Below the pieces are notes generated by a model. The model had not been told where the DNA came from. It did no database searches and was given only the letters and a program-made list of their open reading frames with translations. Positions 6,825-43,636 of a DNA stretch of 64,000 nt are shown here, one piece after another. A program made the position numbers and the translations under genes. Source of the stretch: an uncultured archaeon. GTDB lineage: Archaea > Nanobdellota > Nanobdellia > Pacearchaeales > GW2011-AR1. Numbering within the stretch: position 1 is the stretch's first letter; each line of letters begins with the position of its first letter. The stretch lies in the NCBI GenBank assembly GCA_903866625.1, contig CAIPOI010000002.1, positions 37,063-101,062 of the forward strand, written 5' to 3'.

Positions 6825-8792
6825 CTAACTTACTTTTCCACCCTTTCTTTTAACTAGATAATCTAAAAACATGTTAGAATGAGTTCTAAAATCTTCAAAA
6901 GGTATTTCAAAAGTTACAGCATCAATAGAACTTGTTCCATCTAATAGCATTTCCATGCCCGCAAGTGCCAAGGGTTCCATTCCTCTCGCAATAGCTTTAT
7001 CAAGATATACCCTTGAATCTCTTACTCCAGTAGACATCAGTTTTTTTTCTTCAGCTCCAGGAATCCAAATTTCTGTAACTGGTTTTCTTCCACGATAACC
7101 CATATCCATACAGTGTTCGCACTTTTTTGTAGGGTCTTTAGCTCTATAAAGCCTTATGCCTCCGCCAAGATGTTCTTCATCAACGCCTAACAGCTCTCTC
7201 ATATCTTCAATGCCATTATAAGGAACTTTGCAGTTATCGCAGAGCTTTCTAACAAGTCTTTGAGCAACGATGCATCTTAAGAAATTTTGCAAGTCTGAAT
7301 TTTCAACTCCCATCTCAAAAAGTCTTGAGAGTGTTCCAGTAGCATCATTAGTATGCAGAGTTGAAAAAACCAAGTGTCCGGTCTTAGACGCTTCCATTGC
7401 TATTTTAGCAGTTTCTCCATCTCTGATTTCTCCAACAAGAATAACATCAGGGTCTTGTCTTAAATATCTCCTAAGCATTTCTGGAAAGGTTAATCCTATT
7501 TCGGGTCTTATCTGGGTTTGATTTATACCTTTGAGAGGTATTTCTATAGGGTCTTCAACAGAACCAATATTAATATCCGGTTTATTTAATTCTTGGAGTG
7601 CAGAATATAGCGTGGTTGTTTTTCCAGAACCCGTAGGACCTGTAACTAAAATTAATCCATTAGGCAATTCAGTTTGCCTCTTTAATTGAGTGTAAACCTT
7701 TTCAGGATAACCCAGTTTAGCTAGATTAAAATCCCTATCTAACTTTAACATTCTAAGAACTGCCTTTTCTCCAAAGAGAACCGGTATTGTAGAAACTCTG
7801 ATACTATATTCTTTTAAATATTTTTTAATTTCGTTGGCCATATCATCTTTTATAACGCTTTCGTCATCTGCTCTGTGCTCAAAAGTTATAACCCCATCTT
7901 GAGGGAGTCTTTTTTCTTCAATTCTTAATTTAGCAGAAGTCTTTACAGCATTAATTAAACTATTAAACACACTCATAGGAACTCTATATTCTGCTTCCTT
8001 TAACATTCCATCTACTCTGTATCTTATTCTACATCTTTCAGAATCAACTGGTTCTATATGCACATCTGTTGCCCCAAGTTTTCTGGCAGTTTTAAGAACT
8101 GCAAAATAAATTTTTCTGGCATTTTTTTCCTCATCAAAATTATTTAAAAATTGTCTTCTTTCATCAAATGCATTTGGGCCATAGGTTAAATCAAGAGCAT
8201 CCATAAATACTTTTTCAGGCAAAAAGATTCCTGTAACCTGATCTAGTATCCATTTCTTATCCGCTTCTAATGCAAGCTCTTCAGGTTCTAACTCACTCTC
8301 TAAATTTTTGGGCAATTTAAGATAATTATTAAAACAAGGAAGTAAGGAGCTTTCTAGTGCATCATAAATATTAACTGCATTTGCTATCTCTCCAGCATTA
8401 TGGGTTCTTATTCCCAAGGTTAGTCTTCTAATTGGTTGCTCTCCTGTCATCACATCTGCCTTTGTTCTTATTTCTTGAGCTAAAGGGATAATCCCATTTC
8501 TGTAAAATAAAGAATAATTATGTTCTTGAAATTCTGGATCGCTTGCTCCATTAGATTTTCTATCAAATTTAGTGAACTCAAGTCTATGGCCATGAAAAAA
8601 TTGAATCATATTCTCCCAGCTTGCAAAGGGCGTGGCTTCTATAAGGGGAACTGAATTACCTAGATAGGGCTGAAGTTCTGCTTCTAATCTTCCTATGTCT
8701 TGTAGTTGTGCCGGACTTAATCCTTCTATAGAGCTTCGCCTTAAAGAATCATATTTTAACTGTACAGCATTAGGTTCTGTAGACTCAACCAT
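6825..8792 (-). CDS. Type II/IV secretion / type IV pilus assembly ATPase, bacterial GspE/PilB type
   Basis: Walker A VTGPTGSGKTTTLYS. Walker B/Asp box DPDVILVGEIRD. His box TGHLVFSTLHTND. Tetracysteine CDNC...CEHC is followed by GYRGR. Confidence 0.85.
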   Translation of the reverse strand: MVESTEPNAVQLKYDSLRRSSIEGLSPAQLQDIGRLEAELQPYLGNSVPLIEATPFASWENMIQFFHGHRLEFTKFDRKSNGASDPEFQEHNYSLFYRNGIIPLAQEIRTKADVMTGEQPIRRLTLGIRTHNAGEIANAVNIYDALESSLLPCFNNYLKLPKNLESELEPEELALEADKKWILDQVTGIFLPEKVFMDALDLTYGPNAFDERRQFLNNFDEEKNARKIYFAVLKTARKLGATDVHIEPVDSERCRIRYRVDGMLKEAEYRVPMSVFNSLINAVKTSAKLRIEEKRLPQDGVITFEHRADDESVIKDDMANEIKKYLKEYSIRVSTIPVLFGEKAVLRMLKLDRDFNLAKLGYPEKVYTQLKRQTELPNGLILVTGPTGSGKTTTLYSALQELNKPDINIGSVEDPIEIPLKGINQTQIRPEIGLTFPEMLRRYLRQDPDVILVGEIRDGETAKIAMEASKTGHLVFSTLHTNDATGTLSRLFEMGVENSDLQNFLRCIVAQRLVRKLCDNCKVPYNGIEDMRELLGVDEEHLGGGIRLYRAKDPTKKCEHCMDMGYRGRKPVTEIWIPGAEEKKLMSTGVRDSRVYLDKAIARGMEPLALAGMEMLLDGTSSIDAVTFEIPFEDFRTHSNMFLDYLVKRKGGKVS

Positions 8793-8895: not shown

Positions 8896-10194
8896 ATGAA
8901 AAATTGGTTGTTTTTATTTAGTTTTATTTTTATCTTTAGTCTTGCAACTATTTCTGCGGTAACTATTAACCTTGTTAAATCTGAATACTATTCTGGAGAA
9001 ACTTTACAAGCAGAAATTTCTGGCGGATTTGTAGATTCTTTGTTAGATTCTAATATTGGCATTTACAAAGAAGGAGCAGTGCATAAATCTCCTACTGGAG
9101 ATTCTGGAATAGTAAAGGATGAGACAAAATACTACTACTATGCTCTTCTACCTCAAGAACCTGGAAAATATTCCCTGAGAATTGAAAACACTAAACACTA
9201 CGAAAATAATAATGCTACAACTGCAACAATTGAGAAAAACTTTACTATAACTGAAACAAATAGTTCCTATCTCTCTTTTAGCCCAGGTTATATTAAAACT
9301 ACGACTGATTTTAAAATTATAGTTAAATCTTATAATGAAGAGCAAAATATTAAGGTAGAATTTCCACTAAAAGATTTTGAACAGAACTTTAGTCTTGGTT
9401 ATGGATTTTCAAAAAATATTTATCTATCTATTTCCGGATTAACCGGAGTTTCAAGAGATAGCATTAAGATTAATTCATATACTCTTCCGGTTATAGTTGT
9501 AATGAATGATTCTTCTTCAACTAATGACTCTTCCATAATTGATAGATATAATCTAAGCGATATTATAGAAGTTGATCCTAGGGGATTGAATATACTTTTG
9601 CCAAAAAATAAAGAAAATATTTTTCCAATAGATATTAGAAATACTCGTCAAGAGTTCTATAATATAGAACTAACTACTTCAGATAAAGAACTAAAAATTG
9701 AACCTGAAGAGATAATTGGTTTTAATGGCACTCAAAGAATAAATCTTACAATCTCTTCTAATAGAAGTTTTAATGGTTACATAAAAATAAGTCACGGAGA
9801 TAATTCCTTAAGGATTCCTATAAATCTCGAAGTCAGCGATAATGCTTCTGCTTTTAATTCTACTCCTGTCGAAGTCAATCCATCAAAAACTTGTTCAGAT
9901 TTGGGAGGAAAGATTTGTAATTATGAATCTGGAGAAGAGTGCGATAAGATTACCTATGACGCCAATAATAAAGCTTGTTGTTTATCTGGGTGTATGGGTA
10001 AAAAAACTTCTTATGGTTGGTTATGGGGTTTGCTACTATTAATAGTTCTTGGAGTTGGAGTTTGGTATTTTTTAAAGAAAGCAAAAAAGAGTCCTGATGA
10101 AAAATCTACCCTAACTAAAAGAGTAGAAGATTACAAAAAAAGAATGGATTTAGATGAAAATTTAGAAGTAAGAAAGGGACTAGTTAAAGAATAA
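8896..10194 (+). CDS. Secreted surface protein with one Cys-rich juxtamembrane module and C-terminal TM anchor
   Basis: Signal peptide MKNWLFLFSFIFIFSLATISA. Many N-x-S/T sequons. Module CSDLGGKICNYESGEECDKITYDANNKACCLSGC at 9892..9993, followed by TM helix WLWGLLLLIVLGVGVWYF. Confidence 0.55.
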   Translation: MKNWLFLFSFIFIFSLATISAVTINLVKSEYYSGETLQAEISGGFVDSLLDSNIGIYKEGAVHKSPTGDSGIVKDETKYYYYALLPQEPGKYSLRIENTKHYENNNATTATIEKNFTITETNSSYLSFSPGYIKTTTDFKIIVKSYNEEQNIKVEFPLKDFEQNFSLGYGFSKNIYLSISGLTGVSRDSIKINSYTLPVIVVMNDSSSTNDSSIIDRYNLSDIIEVDPRGLNILLPKNKENIFPIDIRNTRQEFYNIELTTSDKELKIEPEEIIGFNGTQRINLTISSNRSFNGYIKISHGDNSLRIPINLEVSDNASAFNSTPVEVNPSKTCSDLGGKICNYESGEECDKITYDANNKACCLSGCMGKKTSYGWLWGLLLLIVLGVGVWYFLKKAKKSPDEKSTLTKRVEDYKKRMDLDENLEVRKGLVKE

Positions 10195-10761
10195 TTATTT
10201 GTTCTTCTTTCCTTTTTTGCCCTTTCCTTTATTTTTTTCAGATTTTTGGCTTTTCTCTTGGGCTTGTTCTACAACTTTTAATTCATTGAGTGCAGGATTT
10301 GAATTGCCTTGAGAGTTTTGCATGCTTCTCAATTTGTCTGCAATTATCTTATTGTTCATTATAGCCGATTTAGCTATAGAATCATAGTGATGTAATCTTC
10401 TTATGATCTCATTAGCAATGCTATTAAACTCAATATTTTTTAGGCTTACTCTTTCAGGTTCTATAATTTCCACACTTGAAGGCATATAGGTAAAACATAT
10501 GCCGAATAAATTTACGATATTATCACACTCAAATTCAATTTCTGCAAAAGAAGTAAATAATTCACTTTCGCTTTTTATTACATTGCCTTTCTCATCTTTT
10601 CTTTCATAAAGTTTTGCTTCATGGATATTGCTGTTAAGGACTTTTATTCCATTTTCCTTGCCAATAGTTTCAACCATTTTTTTTAGAGTTTCAACTAAAT
10701 GTTCTTTAGGCCTTCCAAGTACTTCTAAAATTATTAAAGCTTTTATTTTTTTATCAAACAT
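10195..10761 (-). CDS. Hypothetical protein with Lys-rich C-terminal tail
   Basis: 188-aa ORF whose start overlaps the stop of the upstream gene. The tail is KSQKSEKNKGKGKKGKKNK. No family recognised. Confidence 0.45.
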   Translation of the reverse strand: MFDKKIKALIILEVLGRPKEHLVETLKKMVETIGKENGIKVLNSNIHEAKLYERKDEKGNVIKSESELFTSFAEIEFECDNIVNLFGICFTYMPSSVEIIEPERVSLKNIEFNSIANEIIRRLHHYDSIAKSAIMNNKIIADKLRSMQNSQGNSNPALNELKVVEQAQEKSQKSEKNKGKGKKGKKNK

Positions 10762-11851
10762 TTTTATTCTGATCTAAATTTAATATTAACACTATTGTTA
10801 AAATTATGCATAACATGCCAAAAGCATAAGGTGCATATTCTCTTATATACTCGTTTTTTGATTTATAAACTATACTATTCGCGGTTAGAGTTTTATTATT
10901 TTTGCTAGTTGATTTAGAATTCAATCTTATAACCTCTACATTAGAATTGGAGGTATGGTTCTGAAACGAAAGATTTTCTTCAGTTAATGTTAAGTTATTC
11001 AAGATAACTTCAATATCTTTAGTTATATCTGCTACAATTGAACTTGCCCCATAAATTCTTATCTTAGCACCTATCTTAAAATCTCCGGAAAGATTATCCT
11101 GCTTTAGCCTTAATTTAATGCTTTGTTGATCCTCTCCTTCTCCTTGAAGACAATCTTCAATATAATAGTTTCCAGATTGCCAAGCTCCTTCAGGTTCATT
11201 ATATGTCTCAGAAACAATTGTTCCATCTTCATCTTCGATAAAGATTTTAACATCATAGTCTTCATTAGCAAGATTAAAAGCTTTAACCACAACTATAAAT
11301 TCTTTATTTGAAACAATATCTTCATCATCCCAATCGAGTTTAAGATAGAGAGAATCGTTTTCAGAAGTGTTTGTATTGCTTGTTGAATTGTTGTTTGTTT
11401 GGTTAGAGGTATTATTAGAATTTTGAATCTGACAGTTATTAACTATTCCCCTGGTAGAATTTGTAAATATCCATTCCCCACTGCAATATTGCCAAGTCTG
11501 ATTATTATTTAAGCTGTCGCTTATAATACTGGTATTAAAAATAAGATTATTCATCGAATCATAGATAAATAATTGTTCATTAGCATTGTTTAGACTTATT
11601 GTTAGGTTCTGTAGAATGTAGTAACCTTCAATATTCAAATTAAGAGTTTGATTCTTACCTGAGGCGTCAGAAATATACCAATTAGTTAAATCTGTCTGGG
11701 CAGAACTATAGAACTCCACCCACTCACTACAATCATTACAAGTATCATTTGGATTAAGCTCAATTTCACTTATAATAACTGAGGCTAAGCAAACATTTAA
11801 ACTTCCAAGAAAAATAAATGCTAACAAAAAGGCAGACGAGCTCCTTTTCAT
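10754..11851 (-). CDS. Secreted lamin-tail-domain (LTD) protein with C-terminal TM anchor
   Basis: A signal peptide is followed by VIISEIELNPN...SEWVEFYSS...DLTNWYISDASGK, an LTD-like pattern. It also has an Asn/Ser/Thr-rich linker and a C-terminal TM helix FGMLCIILTIVLIL. Confidence 0.55.
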   Translation of the reverse strand: MKRSSSAFLLAFIFLGSLNVCLASVIISEIELNPNDTCNDCSEWVEFYSSAQTDLTNWYISDASGKNQTLNLNIEGYYILQNLTISLNNANEQLFIYDSMNNLIFNTSIISDSLNNNQTWQYCSGEWIFTNSTRGIVNNCQIQNSNNTSNQTNNNSTSNTNTSENDSLYLKLDWDDEDIVSNKEFIVVVKAFNLANEDYDVKIFIEDEDGTIVSETYNEPEGAWQSGNYYIEDCLQGEGEDQQSIKLRLKQDNLSGDFKIGAKIRIYGASSIVADITKDIEVILNNLTLTEENLSFQNHTSNSNVEVIRLNSKSTSKNNKTLTANSIVYKSKNEYIREYAPYAFGMLCIILTIVLILNLDQNKNV

Positions 11852-34474: not shown

Positions 34475-35332
34475 TCACAACCTTAAATTTCCATCTTGCC
34501 AATCTTTTATAATAACATAACTCGTTCTATTTTCATCAGCTACTCCACCTTTCCTTAAATGTTTCATTCCAAGGGAAAGTTCAGTTAGTATTTCTAAGGC
34601 ATTTTTATCATATTCGCTTTTTTGCTCTTTTAAATTATAAAATTCAAATATTTTTGAAACATTATTTTTAACCATAAAACTTTCAATAATTTTTATAGCA
34701 ACAACTTGAGGGTCATGTATTTTTTCTAAACTTTTTGCTGCAATCATCGCAAGTTTTGATTCTTCTTCATATTCTAGAGGTATTACTCCGGGAGTATCTA
34801 TAAGTTTTATTTCATTATTTGCTTTTATCCAATGAATTCCGTGGGTTGTTCCAGCTTTTTTTGAAACAGCTACTTTTTTCTTGAAAGACAGAGCATTAAT
34901 TATGCTTGATTTTCCAACATTAGGGTAACCTACAATTCCAACTACAATATCTCCTTTTGCTTCTCTGTATGGCTTTTTTATAATTGGTTGATTATAGAAA
35001 TCCGGTCTTTTTCCATACTTTGCAAAAACTTGTCTAATTTTAGCAAGTAAAGTTTTAACTGTTCTTGTTTGCCTGTTTGAAATATAAACAATTTCTGTTT
35101 TTCTTTCTTTATCATCAAATTCTTTAGTGAGCTCTGCAACATTAACCTCTAAATCTTTTCTAGATATCAAATCTGCTTTATTCATAACAATTATAACCGG
35201 CCTTCCAAGCTTAACAAGTAATTCTTCTACTTGTTTATTTCTTGACAGCTGAGGAAATCTTGCATCTATAACTTCCAGTATAATATCTGATTCTCTAACA
35301 ATTTGTTCTATTAAGTCCCAATAGCGTTCCAT
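34475..35332 (-). CDS. Circularly permuted GTPase (YlqF/RbgA/Nug-type ribosome biogenesis GTPase)
   Basis: G4 NKADL precedes G1 GYPNVGKSS and G3 DTPG. Confidence 0.75.
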   Translation of the reverse strand: MERYWDLIEQIVRESDIILEVIDARFPQLSRNKQVEELLVKLGRPVIIVMNKADLISRKDLEVNVAELTKEFDDKERKTEIVYISNRQTRTVKTLLAKIRQVFAKYGKRPDFYNQPIIKKPYREAKGDIVVGIVGYPNVGKSSIINALSFKKKVAVSKKAGTTHGIHWIKANNEIKLIDTPGVIPLEYEEESKLAMIAAKSLEKIHDPQVVAIKIIESFMVKNNVSKIFEFYNLKEQKSEYDKNALEILTELSLGMKHLRKGGVADENRTSYVIIKDWQDGNLRL

Positions 35333-35503
35333 AAGAATAAGAGGAATTTAGGGTTTTTAAGGTGATTTATCAGAATCTTCAGAACTTTCTTCAGCTACTT
35401 CGAGAGAATTACCAAGATTATTACCAAACTCGCTTATTTTTTCTAAGATTTTATCTATGCTTTTTTTATTAGAGTTTTGTTTATCTGAAACCTTCATATT
35501 AAT

Positions 35504-35890
35504 TTATTCTCTTCTCAACAAATAACCTCTGCAATTTTCACTCTGGCACTCGCATTTTATTCGGATAGCATCAGGGCCTTCTGTTCGGTTATAATCAACA
35601 GTTATCTCTTCTCCAGCCAGGATGGGTCTAAGTGAAAAAAGACAAGGTGTTGAAGAAGCATCAATAAGTGTTGATAGCTCTGAATTAGGATTGCAAGAAT
35701 GATTAACATAATTTAATACTTCTTCATCAGAGACCCATAAATTTGTAGCAATTCTAGCACATCTCGGTAGTGGTTTATTAAAGACTTTGCTAAGTGGAAT
35801 TTCATAAAAAGTTTCTCTATCCGAGATTTGTCTTTCTGTAAATATTCCTGTTCCGTGTATTCTACTTGGTTTTTTTACTAGATGATTCAT
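35504..35890 (-). CDS. SET-domain protein lysine methyltransferase
   Basis: RIHGTGIFT, NHSCNPN and EEITVDY, plus post-SET CECQSENC. The ATG at 35890 lies 1 nt after the upstream stop; the track start at 35956 overlaps by 65 nt. Confidence 0.8.
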   Translation of the reverse strand: MNHLVKKPSRIHGTGIFTERQISDRETFYEIPLSKVFNKPLPRCARIATNLWVSDEEVLNYVNHSCNPNSELSTLIDASSTPCLFSLRPILAGEEITVDYNRTEGPDAIRIKCECQSENCRGYLLRRE

Positions 35891-35891
35891 T

Positions 35892-36287
35892 TTATCCTCC
35901 AAACTTTGGACCAAAATCCCGCAGCCAAGCTTCTGATCTAAACTGTCCAAGCCCATTAAGAATTCCAGTAATTTTTTGCACGAGAGTTGTACTTTTCTTT
36001 CTCTTTTCTATCTCAGTAAGTAATGTTTGTCTTACATATTCGACTTCTTGAGGGCCAATTTGTCTTCCAAAATGTATTCCATCCATAAGAAGGAGAAAAT
36101 AACCTTCATGAGCTACTTCTTTAGGTGCGGCAAATTTCTTAGGATAAGATTCATGTAGGGCTTGTTCTAGTCCAATCTGATAATTCTCTAGTGCGTGAAT
36201 TCTATATTGTCCGCCATAGCCTCTTAAATCATTATCAAGATGTTTGAGATGCTCTCTTACATAAGGGGGTAAATAATGTTTTGTCAT
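35892..36287 (-). CDS. Hypothetical protein (operon member)
   Basis: 131 aa. 4-nt overlap with the upstream methyltransferase gene. No family recognised. Confidence 0.5.
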   Translation of the reverse strand: MTKHYLPPYVREHLKHLDNDLRGYGGQYRIHALENYQIGLEQALHESYPKKFAAPKEVAHEGYFLLLMDGIHFGRQIGPQEVEYVRQTLLTEIEKRKKSTTLVQKITGILNGLGQFRSEAWLRDFGPKFGG

Positions 36288-37039
36288 TTTGTTACTTTAA
36301 ACCCCTGGAAGATATCGTGTTCTCTATAATTTCTCCAGTAATCTAGAGGTAGTGTTAATAATCCCTCTGTAGAGACCACATTTCGACAGCTATACCATTC
36401 AATTTTTTTAAATCCGGCTCTTGCAGCGGCTTCTTGATAACTGCTTTTAGGCCAATCATTTATTTCTGCACTAAACTGTTGTTCTCCAACAGTTCTTGTA
36501 AATCTAAATCTCGGAATATTTGGAGATTCGGGTAAGGATTCAATTCTTTCGTAAACTCTATCGCTATTTGCTCTTCCACCATTAAATCCTTGCTCAACAA
36601 GATGGTTTTGAAAACCTATGAAATCAGCATTTTTTAATAGATGCGGATAAACTCTTGAAAACACTTCGTTCATTTGTTTCTGACTTCTTATATAGTTAAG
36701 CATAAGAATAGAAACCGCATGATCAAATGTAGGTCTTAATTCAGGTAATTTTTCTGCATCCAAACAATAATAGTCTATGCCTTGTTTTCTTTTCGTTTCT
36801 TCCGCATTTGCTAAGTCTATCATTTTTTGTGAGCTATCTATTCCTAAAATGCAGGCACCCATTTCTGCCAGTATTCTGCTGGTATAACCATATCCACAAC
36901 CAATATCAAGAATATGTTTGTTCTTTATGTTTCCAAGAAGCATAAGGAGTGTTGGAGTAATAGAATATCTTTTTACATAATGTGTTTCATCTGCTTCTTG
37001 ATATTTTTTAGCAAGTGCGTCGAATTGTGGATCTGTCAT
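36284..37039 (-). CDS. Class I SAM-dependent methyltransferase
   Basis: Motif I ILDIGCGYGYTSRILAEMG. Post-I ILGIDSS. Confidence 0.75.
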   Translation of the reverse strand: MTDPQFDALAKKYQEADETHYVKRYSITPTLLMLLGNIKNKHILDIGCGYGYTSRILAEMGACILGIDSSQKMIDLANAEETKRKQGIDYYCLDAEKLPELRPTFDHAVSILMLNYIRSQKQMNEVFSRVYPHLLKNADFIGFQNHLVEQGFNGGRANSDRVYERIESLPESPNIPRFRFTRTVGEQQFSAEINDWPKSSYQEAAARAGFKKIEWYSCRNVVSTEGLLTLPLDYWRNYREHDIFQGFKVTK

Positions 37040-37479
37040 TTTCTCTCTCCAATTAATTGTTTTCTTTTTGCTTCAAGATGTTCAATCTCTATTCTTATAA
37101 AATTTCTAACACCAAATATAAGTAAAAATGAAAATACAAGCCCAATTTCCATACCAACAACAAGATTTTTGAAAGTATATCCAATCAAGGCACCAGCAAC
37201 AACAAAATTTATAACTAACTTAGAGATTTCTATATTTCTCAGTTTATGAAGCGGATTCTTAAATAATTTTACTAAATTATCTATAAGAATGAACACGCCC
37301 AGAGCTGCAGCTATACTTCTTACTATAGAAACATCTAATTGCTCTTCTTGAAGTGCACTTTCTGCAGCAAATTTTGCAGTCTCTAATCTATTTATGGGTT
37401 CTTCTAAAGTGCTTGGCATAATGGTTTCAGAATTATTTATAAGTCCCTGCTCGGCTTTCATTAAAGTTAAATCATTCAT
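37036..37479 (-). CDS. Hypothetical membrane protein (about 3 TM)
   Basis: Hydrophobic segments AAALGVFILI, FVVAGALIGY and GLVFSFLLIFGV. Overlaps both neighbours by 4 nt. Confidence 0.5.
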   Translation of the reverse strand: MNDLTLMKAEQGLINNSETIMPSTLEEPINRLETAKFAAESALQEEQLDVSIVRSIAAALGVFILIDNLVKLFKNPLHKLRNIEISKLVINFVVAGALIGYTFKNLVVGMEIGLVFSFLLIFGVRNFIRIEIEHLEAKRKQLIGERK

Positions 37480-37649
37480 CTTAACTCCTCCACAAATCCT
37501 TCAGGATTTGCTTCTTCAAGAATATCTATTTGTATTCTTACAAGCATGGAAGGTTTAACATGCTCGGAAAGTATGCTTGGAATAACAATCACCGATTGCT
37601 TGCCGTGCTTGGCAATTCTTTTTGTTATTGTGAATGTTTGTTTTTTCAT
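37476..37649 (-). CDS. Unannotated 57-aa AbrB/SpoVT-like (swapped-hairpin) small protein, paralogue of 42924..43094
   Basis: Below ORF-track cutoff. My translation is MKKQTFTITKRIAKHGKQSVIVIPSILSEHVKPSMLVRIQIDILEEANPEGFVEELR. Its TGA overlaps the ATG of the next gene (ATGA). About 60% identical to its paralogue over 40 aa. Confidence 0.55.
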   Translation of the reverse strand: MKKQTFTITKRIAKHGKQSVIVIPSILSEHVKPSMLVRIQIDILEEANPEGFVEELR

Positions 37650-37655
37650 CGTCTC

Positions 37656-38366
37656 TTAGAAGCTATAGCCCAAGCTAATTCCTCCCCAGTTTAGATTTTC
37701 AATTTTACTTGAAACTCCTCTTTGAGCATTGAAGAAAGCATGGGCATTGAAATTCTTGTAAGAAACTCCGAGTTTTATTCCGGGAGTTAGATGTGCTAGA
37801 CCATAAGTACCATAGTAATTATTATTCACAGAGCTCGATAGTGAAGGAGTTAAATTCACTTTAACCTTGCTATCTACTACTGGAATTGTTTTAGAAACAC
37901 TTGCACAAAATCTATCTCCATTTTCAGTTAACTCCGTTTTGTTTAAATGATTCCAAAATACTTTTGCGTCAAATTTTCCAGAATAACTTAATGTCAGTCC
38001 TTCAACAGAATCATGATCTCCAAATCTCTCGTTAGGGTAGTCCCAATATTGAGCTGTTGCAGAAGCAGTTAAATTACTAGTTAATGGAACAGAGTAAGTT
38101 AAACAATAATCTCTTTCACTTATACTTCTCTCTGAAGTAAATTGATTCTGCCATACTCCTAATTCAAGTCCTTTTACCGGATTTATACTCATCCAATCTT
38201 GTCTGCATGTTTCATTTATCGCTGGTCCAGCAGGCGAAACAAAAGCAGATACTAATGAGCTTTGTACATAAGGTTTTGGAAGTTCAAATGCTTGAGATTT
38301 TTGGAAAGGCATTAAAGCACTAGCTCCAACTAATATTCCAGCAAGAATAGATTTTAGAGAGCTCAT
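37656..38366 (-). CDS. Signal-peptide protein resembling a bacterial outer-membrane beta-barrel (TorF/Gcw_chp-like putative porin)
   Basis: Signal peptide MSSLKSILAGILVGASALMPFQKSQA. Alternating-polarity strands. GLELGVWQNQ...ERDYCLTYSV...AQYWDYPNE...EGLTLSYSG. C-terminal ...GISLGYSF ends in an aromatic residue. Confidence 0.5.
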   Translation of the reverse strand: MSSLKSILAGILVGASALMPFQKSQAFELPKPYVQSSLVSAFVSPAGPAINETCRQDWMSINPVKGLELGVWQNQFTSERSISERDYCLTYSVPLTSNLTASATAQYWDYPNERFGDHDSVEGLTLSYSGKFDAKVFWNHLNKTELTENGDRFCASVSKTIPVVDSKVKVNLTPSLSSSVNNNYYGTYGLAHLTPGIKLGVSYKNFNAHAFFNAQRGVSSKIENLNWGGISLGYSF

Positions 38367-39454
38367 TTTTTACCTCCAAAACTATAGGTATAAGCAAAAT
38401 ATCCTGCATAATCAGGTTTTGTATTTTCACTGAAACTTGCTTGAGTCCAGATTCTAAAGTTTTTACCTAGATAAGAACTTAAACCAACTCTGAATCCATC
38501 ATTATTGTTAGAAAGATTTCTATTAACTTCTTGAACTAACATAACATTTTGAACGGGTCCATAAGAACCAATATTTTCTGCAAATCTAGCATATGATTGA
38601 TTATTTCTGCTTACACTAATGTCTCCACCAACATCTCCAAACTTTTCTCCGCATTGACTTTCAGCAGTCAAATAACTAAATTGACCAACTCCCCATGGCT
38701 GAGTTGGATCTGCCCAATATCCAGGTTCAGTTAATTCAGTATTGTTTGCAAAATCTGCTTCTATAGATCTGTTTATACAGAACATACTATTTCTTCCAAA
38801 TCTAATTCTTGCTTCTCTACAATTAACTTGAGCTTTATCTCCAACCTTAACGTGTCCGTTTATTCTATAGTCCGGATTAATTCTTGTACTATACGCAAGT
38901 TCAGCTACTCTTTCTTTTCCTTTATTCTGACCAAAACCAATTTCTGCTCTAGTATCTTTATCTAATTGATAAAAATTAACCGATCTCCAAGTACCAAGAT
39001 CATTAAATGAGATTTGATTCTGTAATTCTTTAGTTGGTTTTATAGCTAAACGGGCATTAACAGAGTCAACTAAATTTGATTTTTGAAAAGAATCATAAGC
39101 TACATCAAACCAGCCATGTTCATTTTCCAATCCTCCAAGAATTCTATAAGAATCTGTATTAGAATTCTCCCCTTCTCTTTGAACTAAACTAAGTTTAGCA
39201 CTTCTATTATCTAGCGTAAGACCATAGATATTTTTATCTCCTCTTGTTTCAACTACGGCCCTACTGTCTCCATATCTGTATAGTGTTTCAGTTATGGGTC
39301 TTACAGAATTTTCGACTACTACTCTTTCATCAAGTGTAGGTTTAAATGGTTGGTAGATATGCTCACCAGCAAAGCCAGGTATAACTGAGATTACTAGAGC
39401 AAGTGCTCCGGCTGTTAAGCTTCTAAATTTATTCTTTATTGTTTTTGTTTGCAT
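38363..39454 (-). CDS. Signal-peptide, beta-strand-rich secreted protein (beta-barrel-like)
   Basis: Signal peptide ...LTAGALALVISVIPGFAG. Strand-like alternation throughout. C-terminus ...YFAYTYSFGGKK. 4-nt overlap with the next gene. Confidence 0.5.
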   Translation of the reverse strand: MQTKTIKNKFRSLTAGALALVISVIPGFAGEHIYQPFKPTLDERVVVENSVRPITETLYRYGDSRAVVETRGDKNIYGLTLDNRSAKLSLVQREGENSNTDSYRILGGLENEHGWFDVAYDSFQKSNLVDSVNARLAIKPTKELQNQISFNDLGTWRSVNFYQLDKDTRAEIGFGQNKGKERVAELAYSTRINPDYRINGHVKVGDKAQVNCREARIRFGRNSMFCINRSIEADFANNTELTEPGYWADPTQPWGVGQFSYLTAESQCGEKFGDVGGDISVSRNNQSYARFAENIGSYGPVQNVMLVQEVNRNLSNNNDGFRVGLSSYLGKNFRIWTQASFSENTKPDYAGYFAYTYSFGGKK

Positions 39455-39467
39455 TTTGTTTCTCCTA

Positions 39468-39554
39468 TTATCTCAAGAATTCGCAGTCTTGAGGCGCTGC
39501 TGCACCTCTTCCTTTTTTACTTTTTGTTATCGACTTGTGAGTTTTTTGCTCAGT
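39468..39554 (-). pseudogene. Possible degenerate relic of a third AbrB-like leader ORF
   Basis: ATG-less frame TEQKTHKSITKSKKGRGAAAPQDCEFLR*. It shares ITK and the DNA string gaattcttga with the intact copy at 42924..43094. It is flanked by the same promoter and RBS strings. Confidence 0.25.
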
Positions 39555-39684
39555 CTAAGTCTATAATCTATACATAAATAACACATATTTGAAAGGTTTA
39601 AACTTTATTATTAAAGTATATATAGTAGTATAAATGTATATACTCAATCAAAAGGTTTATATATGGGTGATACATGGGGAGTGT

Positions 39685-40038
39685 ATGATAAATGCAATAG
39701 TAGACCAAAGAAGATTTGCGATAGTAAAAGCAAAAGAAAAAGCTGAGGCTTGGGCTTGCATCGATGATGGACGAGAAATAACTCTAATTGTTGAAGAATC
39801 TAAAATAAATAATATAAAACCTATAAAAAAAGAGAAAGATTTTAGATTAATCACTTTTGATGCAAACCTAGATTTTTCACTAACCGGTTTTATTTCGAAT
39901 ATTTCTAATAAATTAGCAGAAGCTAAAATTCCTATCTTTGTAATTTCTGCATTTTCTACAGATCATATTTTAGTTAAAGAGCAATATTTGAAGAATACAA
40001 CTAAGCAATTAGAAGCACTATACTTCAAGGTAATATGA
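39685..40038 (+). CDS. ACT-domain-like small protein
   Basis: FSLTGFISNISNKLAEAKIPIFVISAFSTDHILV matches the ACT_7-type pattern. The ATG at 39685 is preferred because the TATA-like aaagtatatatag lies at 39613..39625. Confidence 0.5.
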   Translation: MINAIVDQRRFAIVKAKEKAEAWACIDDGREITLIVEESKINNIKPIKKEKDFRLITFDANLDFSLTGFISNISNKLAEAKIPIFVISAFSTDHILVKEQYLKNTTKQLEALYFKVI

Positions 40039-40916
40039 AACGAAAACTTGTAAAACAGGGTGCAGCAACTATGATGATTAGTTTGCCAACTAAATGGATT
40101 AAAGAAAATAGTCTTAACAAAGGAGACGAAGTTGATGTAATTGAATCAGAAAAAGATCTTATTATTTCTCGCGAATCTAAAGAAATAAAAAAAGAAACAG
40201 AGATAACTATAACTGTTCCTCTTCAAACAGCAGTCCAAGTTATGATTACTAATGCTTATAGAGCAGATTATCATAAAGTAAAGGTAAACTTTAAGGATAA
40301 GAGAATTTATCCAATGATCAAACAGTTAGTTGATGATCAATTATTGGGTTATGAAATAATAAAGAAAGAAGAAAACTATTGTATCATAGAAAACATAGCT
40401 TCTTTGACAGAAACGCAATTTGATAATATCTTTTCAAAGCTTCTTATGAATGTTGAAGAAACTTTTGATTATGCAGAACAATTATTTAATGGTGAACGAG
40501 TAAATTTTGAAACAACTCAGAATAAAACTAAAGAGTTTGATAATCTTTGCAGAAGATTGATTTTTAGAGAGAGAATGTCTAAGTCTGAATTAAGGGTAGA
40601 TTTTCATTCTGAACTTATGCATGCTCAAAGAGAGATTTATTTGTTATTAACCTATCTAAGCAAAAATAAATTTAAAACTGATAAGACTGAATTAGATTTA
40701 CTAAGAGAATGCAGAAAAGCTTTTGAAATGCTAAAAGAAGCTTATTACACAAAAAGTATTTCTACAATAGAAAAATTAATAGAATTTGAACATGAAGAAT
40801 ACAAAAAAGCTTACAAAGATTTAGAAAAAAGTAATCCAATTATTATTCATCATTTAATGAATGCTTTAAGAGGATTTTATTTGTGTGCTTCGCCTTTAGC
40901 AGGTATACTCATCTGA
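40035..40916 (+). CDS. AbrB/SpoVT-domain plus PhoU-like domain regulator
   Basis: The N-terminal RKLVKQGAATMMISLPTKWIKENSLNKGDEVDVIE is AbrB-like. The remainder is helical and PhoU-like. Confidence 0.65.
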   Translation: MKRKLVKQGAATMMISLPTKWIKENSLNKGDEVDVIESEKDLIISRESKEIKKETEITITVPLQTAVQVMITNAYRADYHKVKVNFKDKRIYPMIKQLVDDQLLGYEIIKKEENYCIIENIASLTETQFDNIFSKLLMNVEETFDYAEQLFNGERVNFETTQNKTKEFDNLCRRLIFRERMSKSELRVDFHSELMHAQREIYLLLTYLSKNKFKTDKTELDLLRECRKAFEMLKEAYYTKSISTIEKLIEFEHEEYKKAYKDLEKSNPIIIHHLMNALRGFYLCASPLAGILI

Positions 40917-42934
40917 GATTTTACTTGGATATTCTGATATCTCTCAAAATGAGTTTCTCCACTATCATCTGTAGCTAACCAAAAAGCAACCGCTCTATCA
41001 ATTATTTCTCTTTTCTCTGCAGGTATAAATGTATTATATCCCGGAATACATTTTGTTATTTTATCATTCTTATTAATAAGTCCAGTTCCGTTTACTTGGA
41101 TTTGTTTAGGATAATAACTAAAATCTTGTGCTCTTAATGAACCAATTATCTCTGAAGGTGAAACCAAACCCCCATTTAGGCATCTATTTTCTTGAAGTTG
41201 TTCAAAACTATATCTTTCTTGAGCTTTTGCTATGGCTGTTCTTATCTCGCTCGGACTGCATAAAACTCTTGCATAAACTTCTTCTAGAGAATCTCCAAAT
41301 CTGTAATTGCCTTGGATATACTTAGCAGTGTGAATCCATTTTCTCCATCCTTGAAGATTTAAATCATTAGTTGAAGCTACCCCTCTTTCTCTTGTAGATT
41401 CTATTATAAAGTTTTTAGGAGTAAATGAACTAGTTCTCTCTTCATCAAAGTCCACTTTATCTTTTGATAATGCCATACTCCTTATCATTGATAATGTAAG
41501 TCTTTTATCTAATCCGGGATGTATTCTAAAGAATCCATCAAAATCTTTCATATCCTGACTTTCTAAAATTTCTTTGCTTTCTAAACCTTGCTTATAGTAC
41601 TTAGCAAACATATCTGGCCCATAAGCAACTTCATAATTGATTGTAGCCGCTTTTCCAGGAGAATCAGCCATTAATCCCGTTCTTGTCTGGCATCTTAGAA
41701 CATCACTCAAGGTTGGAATCCTCTCATTATTCTGACTTGAACTAAATGCTCCGGCAGATATTCCCCAAGAAGCAGCAAATCCAAGACATAAAAGAGAGCC
41801 ACCCAAGGCAGCATATTTTTTTACTGCGTCTACTACTTCTTCTCTAGTAGTTCTTGTAGCATCTTTAAATCTTAATTCTGCTTGATAGACACTGGTTATT
41901 GGTCTTTTTGGTTTTGTAGATAACATATCGTATAAGAAGCTCCTAATATATCTTGGAGCTCGCTCTAACCTTTCTTTTAATTCTGTTTCATGTTCTTCTA
42001 AAGAAATAGATTCTAAGTCCCTATCTCCTTCCCTTAATTTAACTATAAACTCTGCGCCGCCAATAGATAATTTTCTTCCATTCTTATCTTCAACTAAACT
42101 ATAATCAAATAATTTTCTCCCAGTTACTATTTCATATAATACTGCGCCAATTGCATAAATTTCTTCTCTTTCTGTATATTTACTCGGAATTCCTGTTGCA
42201 CAAGCGTTTAACAGTACAGGATGAGTAGCAGAAGTAGAACCTCTTGTTGGAACTGCTTCAGATTCTATTTCCATTTTCATTGCAGCATTTTGCAAATCAG
42301 TCACTATAACTCCTTCCCTTCTCCGAGGTACAATCATATTTTCAGCACTGATATCTCTATGTAAAATACCATTATCATGCAAATATGCAAATGCTTCTAA
42401 TATTGGAGTAAAAAATCTCTTTAGAGCTTTTCTTTCCCTTACCCTATTTGCATCCCTAATATACCCTCTAACAGTTTGTCCTTCAATATAATCTTCAGCA
42501 TTAACAGTTCTACCATCAGGTAACTGAAAACTATCTGCAGTTCTAACAATATAAGGATGACTTAGTTTTCCAGAGATAATTGCCTCTTGCAAATCAATAT
42601 TTCTTCTACTTCTATTAATCTTAGCATTTACAGAGCTTACAATGGAATTTGGTTCAGGTACTTTTACTACAACGTCTCTTTGTAGATTACCATTAGAATG
42701 TACTGCTTTGTAGACTACCCTATTACTTCCTTCATTATACCACAGACCTCTGTTTAGCGGTCTACCGATAAGAGTATATCCTCTTTGAGTAATCGCTTCT
42801 AAATCATTTTTGCTTAGTCCTGGAAATTCTGTCTTAGGATCTTGATTTACTATTCTCTCTGCTTGAGTTAGTAATTCTTGAGTATCAGTCATTCTTGCTT
42901 GATCGGGTTTTTGTTCTAAAGTTTTAGTTTGCAT
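40877..42934 (-). CDS. Membrane-spanning protein kinase-like protein (N-terminal ePK-like domain, 1 TM, ~290-aa C-terminal extracytoplasmic domain)
   Basis: VVVKV (beta3 Lys), HRDISAENM (catalytic loop without the Lys), VTDLQ (in place of DFG), EIYAIGAVLYEIVTG. TM helix AALGGSLLCLGFAASWGISAGAF. ATG at 42934; the track uses GTG at 42949. Confidence 0.65.
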   Translation of the reverse strand: MQTKTLEQKPDQARMTDTQELLTQAERIVNQDPKTEFPGLSKNDLEAITQRGYTLIGRPLNRGLWYNEGSNRVVYKAVHSNGNLQRDVVVKVPEPNSIVSSVNAKINRSRRNIDLQEAIISGKLSHPYIVRTADSFQLPDGRTVNAEDYIEGQTVRGYIRDANRVRERKALKRFFTPILEAFAYLHDNGILHRDISAENMIVPRRREGVIVTDLQNAAMKMEIESEAVPTRGSTSATHPVLLNACATGIPSKYTEREEIYAIGAVLYEIVTGRKLFDYSLVEDKNGRKLSIGGAEFIVKLREGDRDLESISLEEHETELKERLERAPRYIRSFLYDMLSTKPKRPITSVYQAELRFKDATRTTREEVVDAVKKYAALGGSLLCLGFAASWGISAGAFSSSQNNERIPTLSDVLRCQTRTGLMADSPGKAATINYEVAYGPDMFAKYYKQGLESKEILESQDMKDFDGFFRIHPGLDKRLTLSMIRSMALSKDKVDFDEERTSSFTPKNFIIESTRERGVASTNDLNLQGWRKWIHTAKYIQGNYRFGDSLEEVYARVLCSPSEIRTAIAKAQERYSFEQLQENRCLNGGLVSPSEIIGSLRAQDFSYYPKQIQVNGTGLINKNDKITKCIPGYNTFIPAEKREIIDRAVAFWLATDDSGETHFERYQNIQVKSQMSIPAKGEAHK

Positions 42935-43094
42935 TTTTCTCCTCCGCACCCAAGATATCTATATTTAGTTGAACAATTGTTCCTGGTTTTAACTGCGATT
43001 CAAGAATTCTAGGAATAACTATTACTGCTTGTGAGCCATGCTTTGCTATCTTCTTTGTAATAATGAATTTTTTTGTTGGGTTTTGGTTTTCCAT
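42924..43094 (-). CDS. Unannotated 56-aa AbrB/SpoVT-like small protein, paralogue of 37476..37649
   Basis: Below ORF-track cutoff. My translation is MENQNPTKKFIITKKIAKHGSQAVIVIPRILESQLKPGTIVQLNIDILGAEEKNAN. Its last 11 nt overlap the kinase start. Confidence 0.55.
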   Translation of the reverse strand: MENQNPTKKFIITKKIAKHGSQAVIVIPRILESQLKPGTIVQLNIDILGAEEKNAN

Positions 43095-43330
43095 GTTATT
43101 TTGTTACTACTTTTTAGTCATATATTATACATAAATTATGTATAAATCCTTTATAAACCTTGTGGTTTTGTCTTAATTATAAAGTGACACCTATTATCCA
43201 AAACACATTATACCAAAACTTTAAATACTCCGATTTTGGTTTTATATAATAAGAAGTAGTTGAGACAATGTTGAGTTGAGTAAAACGAATTCTTATAGAA
43301 ATAAACAACATTGGAGGAAAAAATTTAAGA

Positions 43331-43636
43331 ATGGCATACGGTAATTTTCGAGGCAATTCTGGTGGATTCGGCGGCGGTAGAAGGCCTGGCGGATTCAGAA
43401 GAAGCTTCGGACCACGTGAAATGACTAAAATCAAGTGTTCACAATGTGGTAAAGAAGACGAAGTCCCTTTCAAGCCTAGAGATGGAAGCACAGTTCTTTG
43501 TAAAGAATGTTACTTCAAATCAAAAGGAATTGAACCAAGAAACAATAGTTTCAAAAAGGACAAAGAACAGAAAGAAGTAGCTGAATCTGCTGAAAATGCA
43601 GAAGAAGCTGAAGAAGAAAATTCTGAAGACTTCTAA
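43331..43636 (+). CDS. RGG-rich zinc-ribbon protein (CxxC-x(n)-CxxC) with acidic tail
   Basis: GNFRGNSGGFGGGRRPGGFRR, then CSQCG...VPFKP...VLCKECY, then an E-rich tail. Confidence 0.6.
   Translation: MAYGNFRGNSGGFGGGRRPGGFRRSFGPREMTKIKCSQCGKEDEVPFKPRDGSTVLCKECYFKSKGIEPRNNSFKKDKEQKEVAESAENAEEAEEENSEDF

Follow-up and report, generated by a model that had tools for sequence, protein, structure and literature searches.

Closest described systems

Porin-type transmembrane beta-barrels are regarded as a hallmark of bacterial outer membranes and derived organelles, and we know of no archaeon that makes them. Two bacterial porin families, OprD/Occ (18 strands) and KdgM/NanC (12 strands), are the described proteins closest to the products of the first two genes of a seven-gene run, here called g1 to g7, found on the minus strand of a 64,000-nucleotide (nt) stretch from an uncultured archaeon (contig CAIPOI010000002.1 of assembly GCA_903866625.1). 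This whole stretch is referred to as the window, and coordinates are window positions unless a related locus is named. The run is one instance of a locus that is shared across a lineage of Woesearchaeota-type DPANN archaea. We propose that it belongs to an envelope module in which regulated pores are accompanied by accessory methylation enzymes, and we give this explanation an even chance of being right. The seven genes, in the order g1 to g7, are as follows (aa, amino acids; SAM, S-adenosylmethionine).

38363-39454, minus strand: g1, 363-aa signal-peptide protein, predicted antiparallel beta-barrel of ~20 strands, OprD/Occ-like (open reading frame, AlphaFold2 model, Foldseek)
37656-38366, minus strand: g2, 236-aa signal-peptide protein, predicted 12-strand beta-barrel, NanC/KdgM-like (AlphaFold2 model, Foldseek)
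37476-37649, minus strand: g3, 57-aa conserved small protein, putative DNA-binding regulator (family alignment; AbrB-like fold not demonstrated)
37036-37479, minus strand: g4, 147-aa protein with three hydrophobic helices (residues 47-65, 83-101 and 103-121), lineage orphan
36284-37039, minus strand: g5, class I SAM-dependent methyltransferase (Methyltransf_25, 1.8e-16)
35892-36287, minus strand: g6, 131-aa conserved unannotated family specific to these operons (local BLAST and alignment)
35504-35890, minus strand: g7, minimal SET-domain methyltransferase of 128 aa (PF00856; start ATG at 35890)

The g1 and g2 proteins resemble both porin families in having a Sec signal peptide, a predicted antiparallel barrel of similar strand count, strands with a hydrophobic/aromatic and a polar face and a C-terminal aromatic residue, and these porins are their best Foldseek matches. 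They differ from them in lacking any sequence relationship, in the extra GGK(K) tail of g1-type proteins, in the confinement of the g1 and g2 families to a narrow DPANN lineage, and in having an archaeal host with no known outer membrane or barrel assembly machinery (BAM). In Gram-negative bacteria some porins are regulated by nutrients, PhoE and OprP being under the Pho regulon. The archaeal locus is similar in that the predicted pore genes have a dedicated regulatory region beside genes for a PhoU-like regulator and a sensor kinase. Unlike the Pho system, however, it has an AbrB/PhoU-like protein, an ACT protein, a Hanks kinase and a 57-aa protein in place of PhoBR; there are no adjacent phosphate-transport genes and the PhoU similarity is weak.

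Parallels can also be drawn for the other genes of the run. A minimal SET protein of Methanosarcina mazei methylates MC1, and g7, at ~130 aa, likewise consists of the SET core only, with an NHSC motif, a catalytic Tyr and a post-SET Cys cluster; it is unusual in closing an envelope-protein operon and in recurring beside barrel or radical SAM genes. The g5 protein is similar over its full length to ToxA-type N-methyltransferases, but no other genes of the toxoflavin pathway are present here. AbrB/MazE/SpoVT regulators share with g3 its size and a pattern recognized by eye, and the small genes head or sit in operons that they possibly regulate; statistical support from Pfam, a PDB profile search or hhalign is, however, absent. 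Finally, the defence systems MADS, PD-T4-6 and BREX-PglW have generic Hanks kinase and class I methyltransferase domains in common with the locus, but their partner genes are missing from it, and it has a conserved backbone rather than a patchy defence-island distribution. Neither the full-text literature that was searched nor PADLOC yielded a described system with this gene combination, in agreement with a preliminary description of the run.

Predicted beta-barrels

The most remarkable content of the run is the porin-like barrel pair, not the methyltransferases. AlphaFold2 modelled g1, from a 15-sequence family alignment, as ~20 antiparallel strands (predicted local distance difference test score, pLDDT, 80.5; predicted template-modelling score, pTM, 0.76), and g2, from a 13-sequence family alignment, as 12-13 strands (pLDDT 84.9, pTM 0.75). 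When the models were compared with PDB using Foldseek, the top match of g1 was OccK3/OpdO (3szv; E 1e-6, template-modelling score 0.46), and further Occ/OprD porins, the BamA barrel and VDAC ranked next; g2 matched NanC (2wjq, TMt 0.62), PcoB (7pge, 0.64), VhGalP (8xua, 0.63), Tsx and OmpG. The matches of both proteins, at probability 1.0, were almost exclusively bacterial outer-membrane barrels, plus organellar ones such as VDAC, and the structural alignments with porins had only 7-13% identity. The preliminary description had g1 as a signal-peptide, beta-rich protein and g2 as a signal-peptide protein resembling a beta-barrel. Both calls hold: the two proteins have Sec-type signals and are all-beta, and for g2 a barrel is strongly supported by structure prediction.

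Several features of the sequences point the same way. Both proteins begin with a Sec-type signal peptide (MQTKTIKNKFRSLTAGALALVISVIPGFAG followed by E in g1; MSSLKSILAGILVGASALMPFQKSQA followed by F in g2). The strands of both proteins show a dyad pattern, one face being rich in L/V/Y/I/F/A and the opposite face in R/S/G/N/E/D, and the mean Kyte-Doolittle values of the two faces are +1.13 and -1.51 in g1 and +0.84 and -0.95 in g2. The C-termini are ...YSFGGKK (g1) and ...LGYSF (g2). This signature is shared by five barrel families in the related loci (g1, g2, F6, F11 and F38), in which all 51 full-length members have a signal peptide. The last residue in these 51 is F in 29, K in 18 and W in 2, and the K-enders bear a GGK-type tail, mostly [FL]GGK(K). 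The aromatic C-terminal beta-signal is thus present, although the g1-type ending of F/L plus GGK(K) departs from the bacterial rule. Of the 613 proteins of at least 150 aa in the window and the fetched loci, 37 have a signal peptide, lack internal transmembrane segments and end in F/W or an [FL]GGK tail; 34 of these 37 belong to the five barrel families.

The [FL]GGK(K) tag after the last aromatic residue is found in g1-type proteins (window 38363-38380), in F6-type proteins and in one F38 protein, with occurrences in loci L016, L020, L022, L024 and L035. Such a recurrent tag could be a sorting or processing signal. By hhalign F6 is weakly related to g1 (90% probability over 74 columns).

Neither g1 nor g2 matched a Pfam or NCBIfam family at E <=0.1, save for a chance-level match to OmpX (E 0.088); neither was a significant match to the OprD (PF03573) or KdgM (PF06178) hidden Markov model (HMM), and PDB sequence searches gave nothing useful. 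Both families are small: a search of 1.84 billion protein clusters gave 17 representatives for g1, and one of 5.8 billion proteins gave 13 clusters for g2. Two distant g1 homologues lie on contigs too short to give context.

Layout of the seven-gene run

The minus strand between 35504 and 39454 holds seven co-directional open reading frames. The junctions are g1/g2, -4 nt; g2-g3, +6; g3/g4, -4; g4/g5, -4; g5/g6, -4; and g6-g7, +1. The preliminary description, which gave seven minus-strand genes with 4-nt overlaps or gaps of at most 6 nt, was right on this point (four overlaps of 4 nt, and gaps of 6 and 1 nt). The +1 value presupposes that the SET gene starts at ATG 35890 (128 aa), whereas a start at the first ATG, 35956, would give 150 aa. 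In public gene calls, too, the SET product has 128 aa, and the kinase has 685 aa and starts at 42934. Two further genes bear on the downstream end of the run.

35357-35497, minus strand: g8, doubtful 46-aa low-complexity open reading frame, 6 nt past the SET gene (open reading frame list)
34475-35332, minus strand: GTPase of YlqF/MMR_HSR1 type, 24 nt after g8, conserved downstream flank (syntenic in L003 and L008/L009)

Outside the window the g8 frame was found only in contig L001, which is identical, and it may not be a real gene. There is no T-run between g8 and the GTPase gene. For this reason the run may extend across the 24-nt gap into the GTPase gene.

Co-directional genes, overlapping or very short junctions and a conserved promoter block upstream of g1 are together what is expected of an operon, and the layout and promoter block predict a single continuous transcript from g1 to g7. 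The g1 operon is the longest tight run in the window (eight genes if the doubtful 46-aa frame is counted; the runner-up has five). Tight spacing is, however, common in this genome: 33 of the 57 same-strand junctions in the window (58%) are of 10 nt or less, and coding density is ~94%. The spacing is therefore weak evidence for functional linkage, and the weight of any linkage argument lies on the comparative data.

A conserved locus with a variable interior

For the comparison, 80 related loci were fetched with 10 kb on either side, and 32 distinct ones contain the AbrB-domain regulator. The recurring layout is a small gene of 50-60 aa followed by a Hanks kinase gene, an AbrB/PhoU-like regulator gene convergent on the kinase gene, and a divergent operon with genes for signal-peptide proteins at its head. 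The kinase gene converges on the 3' end of the regulator gene in 24 of the 32 loci, and a barrel gene is first or second in the divergent operon in ~22 of them. Related contigs retain the flanks (genes for ACT_7, the 293-aa regulator and the kinase at one end, that for the GTPase at the opposite end) and vary in the interior. In L003 and L004 the interior encodes two barrels, an O-methyltransferase, a 117-aa and a 99-aa protein, the small protein, a 164-aa protein and a g6 homolog; in L008 it encodes three barrels, the small protein and five orphans. The more distant L007 has a barrel, a g2 homolog, four genes that include class I and N6_N4-type methyltransferases, the small protein, a 421-aa protein and a g5 homolog. 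In L010, from a Woesearchaeota metagenome-assembled genome (MAG), a small gene, a kinase gene and a gene for a g2-like barrel have overlapping junctions, and a SET gene whose product is 54% identical to g7 follows on the same strand after 114 nt in which nothing is called.

Some cargo recurs more widely. The g5 protein belongs to F7, which is present in nine loci and is the most recurrent methyltransferase family of these operons. The g6 family is found in 13 loci, often immediately after the small gene. The g7 family is found in four loci, and a SET gene in only three of the distinct loci examined; in L036 it follows radical SAM genes. Operons with the small gene also carry barrels, PrmA/MTS-type and N6_N4-type methyltransferases and B12-radical SAM proteins, and in other lineages MoxR-type AAA and VWA proteins. 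A Pfam census of 139 cargo proteins counted 13 class I, two O- and two N6_N4-type methyltransferases, two SET proteins and five radical SAM proteins (four of them B12-binding); about 100 of the 139 had no Pfam match. On the ENA contig that encodes protein P0029, a relative of the operon runs to 20 or more co-directional genes, at least six of them for methyltransferases and many for orphans of 80-140 aa; it is the most extreme "methylation" version seen.

The preliminary description had called the seven-gene combination unprecedented, adding that a lack of synteny in any other genome would count against it. Synteny does exist: homologs of g1, g2, g3, g5, g6 and g7 co-occur in operons of independent assemblies. 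As a unit, though, the seven-gene mix does not stand, because the core consists only of the barrels, the small protein and g6, and one methyltransferase can take the place of another as cargo. Rather than an "unprecedented mix", the run is the form that a conserved Woesearchaeal locus of pore genes and regulators takes in one strain. The suggestion of an envelope-linked module is borne out, on gene neighbourhood and predicted folds, as that of a recurrent locus. Overall the earlier observations were largely correct and partly confirmed, those that stood only in part or not at all being an AbrB label for g3, a low Lys/Asn/Ile bias and a promoter repeat.

The conserved control region

The region between g1 and the divergent regulator operon, and that upstream of the kinase operon, contain the following elements (BRE, transcription factor B recognition element).

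39595-39606, minus strand: BRE/TATA-like box AAAGTTTAAACC of the barrel operon, within a ~70-bp conserved block
39616-39643, no strand: putative operator pair, formed by two palindromes of the GTATATAC type that lie between the divergent TATA boxes
39654-39664, plus strand: BRE/TATA-like box GGTTTATATAT serving the divergent operon for the ACT and AbrB/PhoU-like proteins (conserved in 21 loci, as TATTTAAAC when read on the opposite strand)
39559-39581, minus strand: TATGTRT repeat element close downstream of the TATA box of the barrel operon, including an 11-mer shared with the kinase promoter
43117-43161, minus strand: kinase-operon promoter AAGGTTTATAAAGG, then palindrome TTATACAT-AATT-ATGTATAA, of which the 11-mer is part
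39472-39508, minus strand: two adjacent hairpins in the ~115-nt g1 leader

The divergent intergenic block of ~70 bp (window ~39595-39664) is common to 21 distinct loci, in which the proteins are often only 30-50% identical. Its consensus is TATTTAAACyTTTCTAAAAtrTATATAsATTTAtACTArTATATATAGTTTAATAAAAAtGTTTAAAT, that is, two outward-facing TATA-like boxes flanking two palindromes. The palindrome copies in the window are GTATATAC (39636-39643) and CTATATATAC (39616-39625), and their columns are at least 80% conserved over the 21 loci. The core of the block, a 26-mer at 39597-39622, has no second copy in the 64 kb (0 expected).

The kinase operon has a different promoter that shares a short element with the first. 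The 11-mer ATTTATGTATA occurs in the 64 kb only at 39569-39579 and 43126-43136 (0.10 expected), in both cases ~15 nt downstream of the TATA box. The TATGTRT motif is found at 1.0-1.7 per 100 nt in both promoter classes versus 0.22 per 100 nt in other intergenic DNA, an excess of 5-8-fold. The TTATACAT-N4-ATGTATAA palindrome is not found elsewhere in the window beyond chance. The layout of the kinase promoter is repeated in L004 and L016; in L047 it is degenerate and wider-spaced, in L059 the palindrome lies ~100 nt upstream of the called start, beyond the region that was scored, and in L057 direct repeats of ATACATA are all that is present.

It had been claimed that the promoter and leader of the barrel operon are repeated in front of the kinase. 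The 11-mer and a start region encoding MQTKT are indeed shared, but there is no duplicated promoter; a repeat comparison of the two loci gave only weak matches of 71% identity. Since only the 11-mer and TATGTRT are common to both regions, what they share is a short operator-like element.

The shared start region can be seen in g1 and the kinase gene, which both start MQTKT in similar A/C-rich surroundings (39427-39464 and 42907-42944). The first genes of homologous operons start MQTQTK, MKTQNK, MKTQTK or MVQTKN, and it is possible that operon starts have a conserved translation-initiation region. The fold of the g1 leader was not significant (z = -1.55) and had no Rfam match. Its second hairpin, CTCAAGACTGCGAWTTCTTGAG, is identical in L030 (7001-7022), where the first differs and by eye is still pairable.

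The small protein family

The g3 gene has a paralog at the head of the neighbouring kinase operon.

42924-43094, minus strand: g3 paralog, 56 aa, heading the kinase operon with an 11-nt overlap with the kinase gene

The two proteins are 60% identical, so the small gene is repeated in the adjacent locus, as first described. Eight residues are invariant in the family (T9, K10, A13, K14, H15, G16, Q18 and P24), all inside ITKxIAKHGxQxxIVIP, and conservation extends over the whole ordered length, leaving only a short acidic tail. More than 558 metagenomic matches, a lower bound, were found, and no relatives were found in viral contigs. Among the 80 fetched loci the small gene is directly upstream of a Hanks kinase gene and overlaps its start in ~26, and otherwise lies inside long tight operons.

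Is the small protein an AbrB-type regulator, as first labelled? By eye, its pattern K-x-[VA]-K-[QH]-G...[IV]-x-[LI]-P...L-x-[KP]-G resembles the AbrB domain of the 293-aa regulator. The g3 sequence has no match in Pfam, NCBIfam or PDB sequences, and a profile of the family searched against PDB gave nothing relevant. PF04014 was touched by four of 83 family members, at E >=0.039, and hhalign aligned the small protein with AbrB domains in the expected register at E ~0.04 and a probability of ~1%. The label is therefore plausible by eye and not demonstrated, four tests with Pfam, a PDB profile and hhalign having been without success.

Paralogs of the small protein also occur in other settings. 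In other lineages they head operons for MoxR-like AAA ATPases with repeated, uncharacterized proteins of ~250-300 aa, the small genes lying at ~10001 in L073, 2901 in L074, 3309 in L075, 320 in L076, 1027 in L077 and 268 in L093. In L074 and L075 there are 538-aa proteins that by eye we took as VWA-type. In L021 and L078 the paralogs head operons of radical SAM and double-AAA ATPase genes. Because the small gene heads such varied operons, the small protein looks like a general operon-heading factor.

The other cargo genes

The three remaining genes whose class had been named in the preliminary description were named correctly. The g4 protein has three hydrophobic segments, in line with the three or so transmembrane helices ascribed to it; in a search of 5.8e9 proteins it found only itself, and its C-terminal tail alone resembles family F97 (E 0.003). 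That g5 is a class I methyltransferase is supported by HMM scores (Methyltransf_25, 61 bits versus a cut-off of 27; Methyltransf_11, 55.9 versus 21.2) and by motif I (DIGCGYG at residue 45). Its closest PDB entries are ToxA-type N-methyltransferases (5jdy and 8rdl, E ~1e-17), aligned over the full length (residues 3-246), and its NCBIfam scores are far below every equivalog cut-off. The SET assignment of g7 is above the gathering score (PF00856, 42.6 bits versus 22.4), and the protein has the motifs GTG13, NHSC63, VDY98 with the catalytic Tyr, and the post-SET CxCx4C cluster CECQSENC113. It matches the SET domains of KMT2/SETD2/NSD in PDB (E 3e-9 to 1e-6) and BurB (1.4e-5). On sequence grounds, both g5 and g7 are predicted to transfer methyl groups.

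The g6 family is characterized by the motifs YP..F, QFGPLE and EKRKxKFSxP. The g6 protein has no Pfam or PDB match, its family profile gave nothing useful against PDB, and a word-index search returned only the query, the relatives being found by local BLAST in the fetched loci.

Neighbouring regulator and kinase genes

The genes on the other side of the control region are as follows.

39685-40038, plus strand: ACT_7-domain protein, first gene of the divergent regulator operon (PF13840 on homologs)
40035-40916, plus strand: 293-aa regulator, AbrB/MazE domain at the N-terminus (PF04014), C-terminal part helical and weakly PhoU-like
40877-42934, minus strand: 685-aa Hanks-type Ser/Thr kinase, starting MQTKT (Pkinase, 7.4e-21)

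The ACT_7 gene is probably annotated too long (from 39634). The homologs have 116-117 aa and align from residue 18, so the likely start is M18, ATG 39685; this leaves a divergent intergenic region of 230 nt, like that of L004.

All 16 members of the regulator family have PF04014 (best E 6e-9), and the family profile gave nothing useful against PDB. On testing, the AbrB part of this protein is solid and the PhoU similarity weak.

The kinase scored 75.2 bits against Pkinase (cut-off 31.7) and has VVKV89, HRD192 and DLQ213. Its architecture is of the receptor type, with a kinase domain, one hydrophobic segment (375-398) and an uncharacterized extracytoplasmic domain of ~285 aa, which agrees with the membrane kinase first noted beside the repeated small gene. 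In L007 the kinase gene is split in two.

The kinase and regulator genes converge, and their 3' ends overlap by 40 nt (40877-40916), as they do in the distant L007 (8951-8990). The overlap could be a form of antisense coupling or a shared terminator. Divergent from the small-protein/kinase operon, at 43331-43636, is a gene, conserved in L004, whose 101-aa product (PF23477, zf_Tbcl_2) combines an RGG-rich N-terminus with a CxxC...CxxC zinc ribbon and an acidic tail.

A proposed mechanism and the points against it

The function that we propose for the module is suggested by predicted folds and gene neighbourhood. Transcription of the run would start at the conserved bidirectional control region, which would also serve the ACT / AbrB-PhoU-like regulator operon. 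The g1 and g2 barrels may serve as pores for solutes, located either in an outer layer of the envelope or in a partner cell's membrane; a porin in an energized cytoplasmic membrane would be harmful. Nutrient and envelope signals may set the level of barrel expression by way of the kinase, the AbrB/PhoU-like regulator and the small protein, the last being a putative DNA-binding factor for the shared TATGTAT-type element. The cytoplasmic SAM enzymes would methylate a component of the module, either protein or lipid, in a strain-specific manner.

Several points weigh against this proposal. The main risk is that the predicted barrels may not be membrane pores: the g1 and g2 models are predictions from shallow alignments (13-15 sequences). 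We know of no documented outer membrane in Woesearchaeota. No BamA/Omp85-like gene and no large barrel candidate was found in the 64-kb window or in the fetched loci with their 10-kb flanks. The evidence that links barrels with methyltransferases is entirely one of neighbourhood, in DNA where 58% of same-strand junctions are this tight, and some homologous operons, such as that of L008, contain no methyltransferase at all. A DNA-binding role for the small protein is conjectural, every attempt at fold assignment having failed, and the PhoU-like call on the regulator is weak (PF01895 in only three of 16 family members, best E 2.4e-4). Archaea have also been reported to be without the bacterial outer-membrane machinery (PMC7613921). 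Double membranes are documented in a few archaea, including the DPANN ARMAN cells, all of them closely associated with other organisms (PMC4243693). A full-text literature search for barrel outer-membrane proteins found nothing for Woesearchaeota and, for archaea, one passing remark on a possible distant relative of PopA in Altiarchaeales.

Alternative explanations

The most serious rival, which is partly compatible with our explanation and which taken by itself we consider rather unlikely, is that only the barrels, the small protein and g6 are functional parts of the locus, and that g4, g5 and g7 are unrelated genes that gather at a permissive, strain-variable spot and seem coupled only through the extreme compactness of the genome. 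The tight junctions and high coding density described above fit this, as does similar spacing carrying on into the housekeeping GTPase gene. With the flanks unchanged, the interior of L003 holds an O-methyltransferase gene and orphans while that of L008 is free of methyltransferase genes, and g4 is an orphan. On the other hand, SAM-dependent enzymes make up ~24 of the roughly 40 cargo proteins with a Pfam match, in independent loci, the g5 family recurs in nine loci, and a SET gene appears again after a barrel gene (L010) and after radical SAM genes (L036). Such enrichment would not be expected of random filler.

Could the locus instead be a biosynthetic cluster that yields a methylated peptide or small molecule, of the proteusin-like or other RiPP-like (ribosomally synthesized and post-translationally modified peptide) kind, in which the small protein is a precursor or carrier, the SAM enzymes tailor it and the barrels export it? 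Related operons do have several methyltransferase classes, B12-radical SAM proteins and many small open reading frames, g5 is closest to the small-molecule N-methyltransferase ToxA, and the SET protein weakly matches BurB. But the small protein is conserved throughout and has no variable core rich in Cys/Ser/Thr, its paralog heads a kinase operon in the same genomes, and no protease, cyclase, ABC exporter or recognizable scaffold enzyme was seen in the operons examined. L008, moreover, has the core genes and no SAM enzyme. We regard this explanation as improbable.

We think it very improbable that the kinase and methyltransferases mark an anti-virus defence or methylation-associated island of the MADS kind. 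PADLOC and NCBIfam give domain-level matches of g5 to mad2 (2.4e-16) and of the kinase to mad6, PD-T4-6 and PglW, the cargo is strain-variable at a fixed site, and related operons contain N6_N4-type methylases. These matches, however, cover only generic catalytic domains (in mad2, the methyltransferase domain), and the scores are far below the family cut-offs (MAD6, 78 bits where 460 are required). Other mad genes are missing, and so, from the operon in the window, is any partner of the nuclease, helicase or ATPase kind. Most of the ~32 related loci examined have the backbone, secreted barrels are part of no PADLOC defence system, and the small protein was not found in viral contigs.

The last alternative concerns the origin of the DNA. 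Genes elsewhere in the window are archaeal (PriS primase, PCNA, aIF5B, a Cbf5-type TruB and a FlaI-type ATPase), and its GC content is ~31%. In the seven genes GC at third codon positions (GC3) is 0.15-0.29, versus 0.20 +/- 0.04 in 54 other window genes. The preliminary description had stated that these proteins lack the extreme Lys/Asn/Ile bias of the core genes; in five of the seven the K+N+I content is indeed 1-1.7 standard deviations below the window mean, but the values overlap those of other window genes and so lie within their range. All contigs that have informative neighbours or a title are archaeal, several matches being on contigs too short to judge, and two matches in GTDB are to a 'Candidatus Woesearchaeota archaeon' MAG and an unclassified archaeon. 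A horizontally acquired cassette, also raised in the preliminary description, is thus not supported, and recent acquisition is disfavoured because composition matches the window, the searches detected no bacterial homologs and the chromosomal position is conserved. In particular, a recently acquired cassette of bacterial outer-membrane-protein genes, whether foreign DNA or an assembly chimera, is largely refuted and can hardly be right: the barrel folds are typical of bacteria and GC is slightly above the window mean (0.33-0.35 versus ~0.32), but GC3 and amino-acid usage are inside the window range, the same arrangement is found in many independent assemblies with archaeal flanks (TFIIE, diphthamide synthase, aminoacyl-tRNA synthetases), and no bacterial relatives of g1 or g2 were detected in the searches of 1.84e9 representatives and 5.8e9 proteins.

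Other features of the window

Two further loci were noted. Three proteins with an N-terminal signal or transmembrane segment, a C-terminal transmembrane anchor and no Pfam match are encoded at 4933-6804, 8896-10194 and 10754-11851, around the gene for a FlaI/PilB-type secretion ATPase (6825-8792). Because the three anchored proteins surround this ATPase, the locus is probably one for a surface structure or pilus. At 2173-3783 and 4065-4892, a gene for an unusually long (536 aa) PriS-type primase and one for a Cas4/Dna2-like PD-(D/E)XK nuclease adjoin each other.

Implications for DPANN archaea

What would be new here, if the models and gene neighbourhoods are read correctly, is that envelope proteins of the porin type, with regulation of their own, occur in a domain of life where they were not expected. 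We suggest tentatively, and at less than an even chance, that ultra-small DPANN archaea (Woesearchaeota) make genuine porin-type barrels of several lineage-specific families (g1, g2, F6, F11 and F38), controlled by the circuit described above and decorated by strain-specific methylation enzymes. If this is true, these archaea would have either an unrecognized outer membrane with BAM-independent assembly, or pores that are inserted into the membrane of a partner cell and tap its metabolites.

The 70-bp control region and the abundant 57-aa family make up a testable regulatory circuit in a group that is nearly without experimental genetics. If the barrels are real, they would make the envelope of uncultivated DPANN archaea accessible to study in concrete molecular terms, and would bear both on the BAM-free assembly of barrel membrane proteins and on solute exchange between these metabolically dependent cells and their partners.

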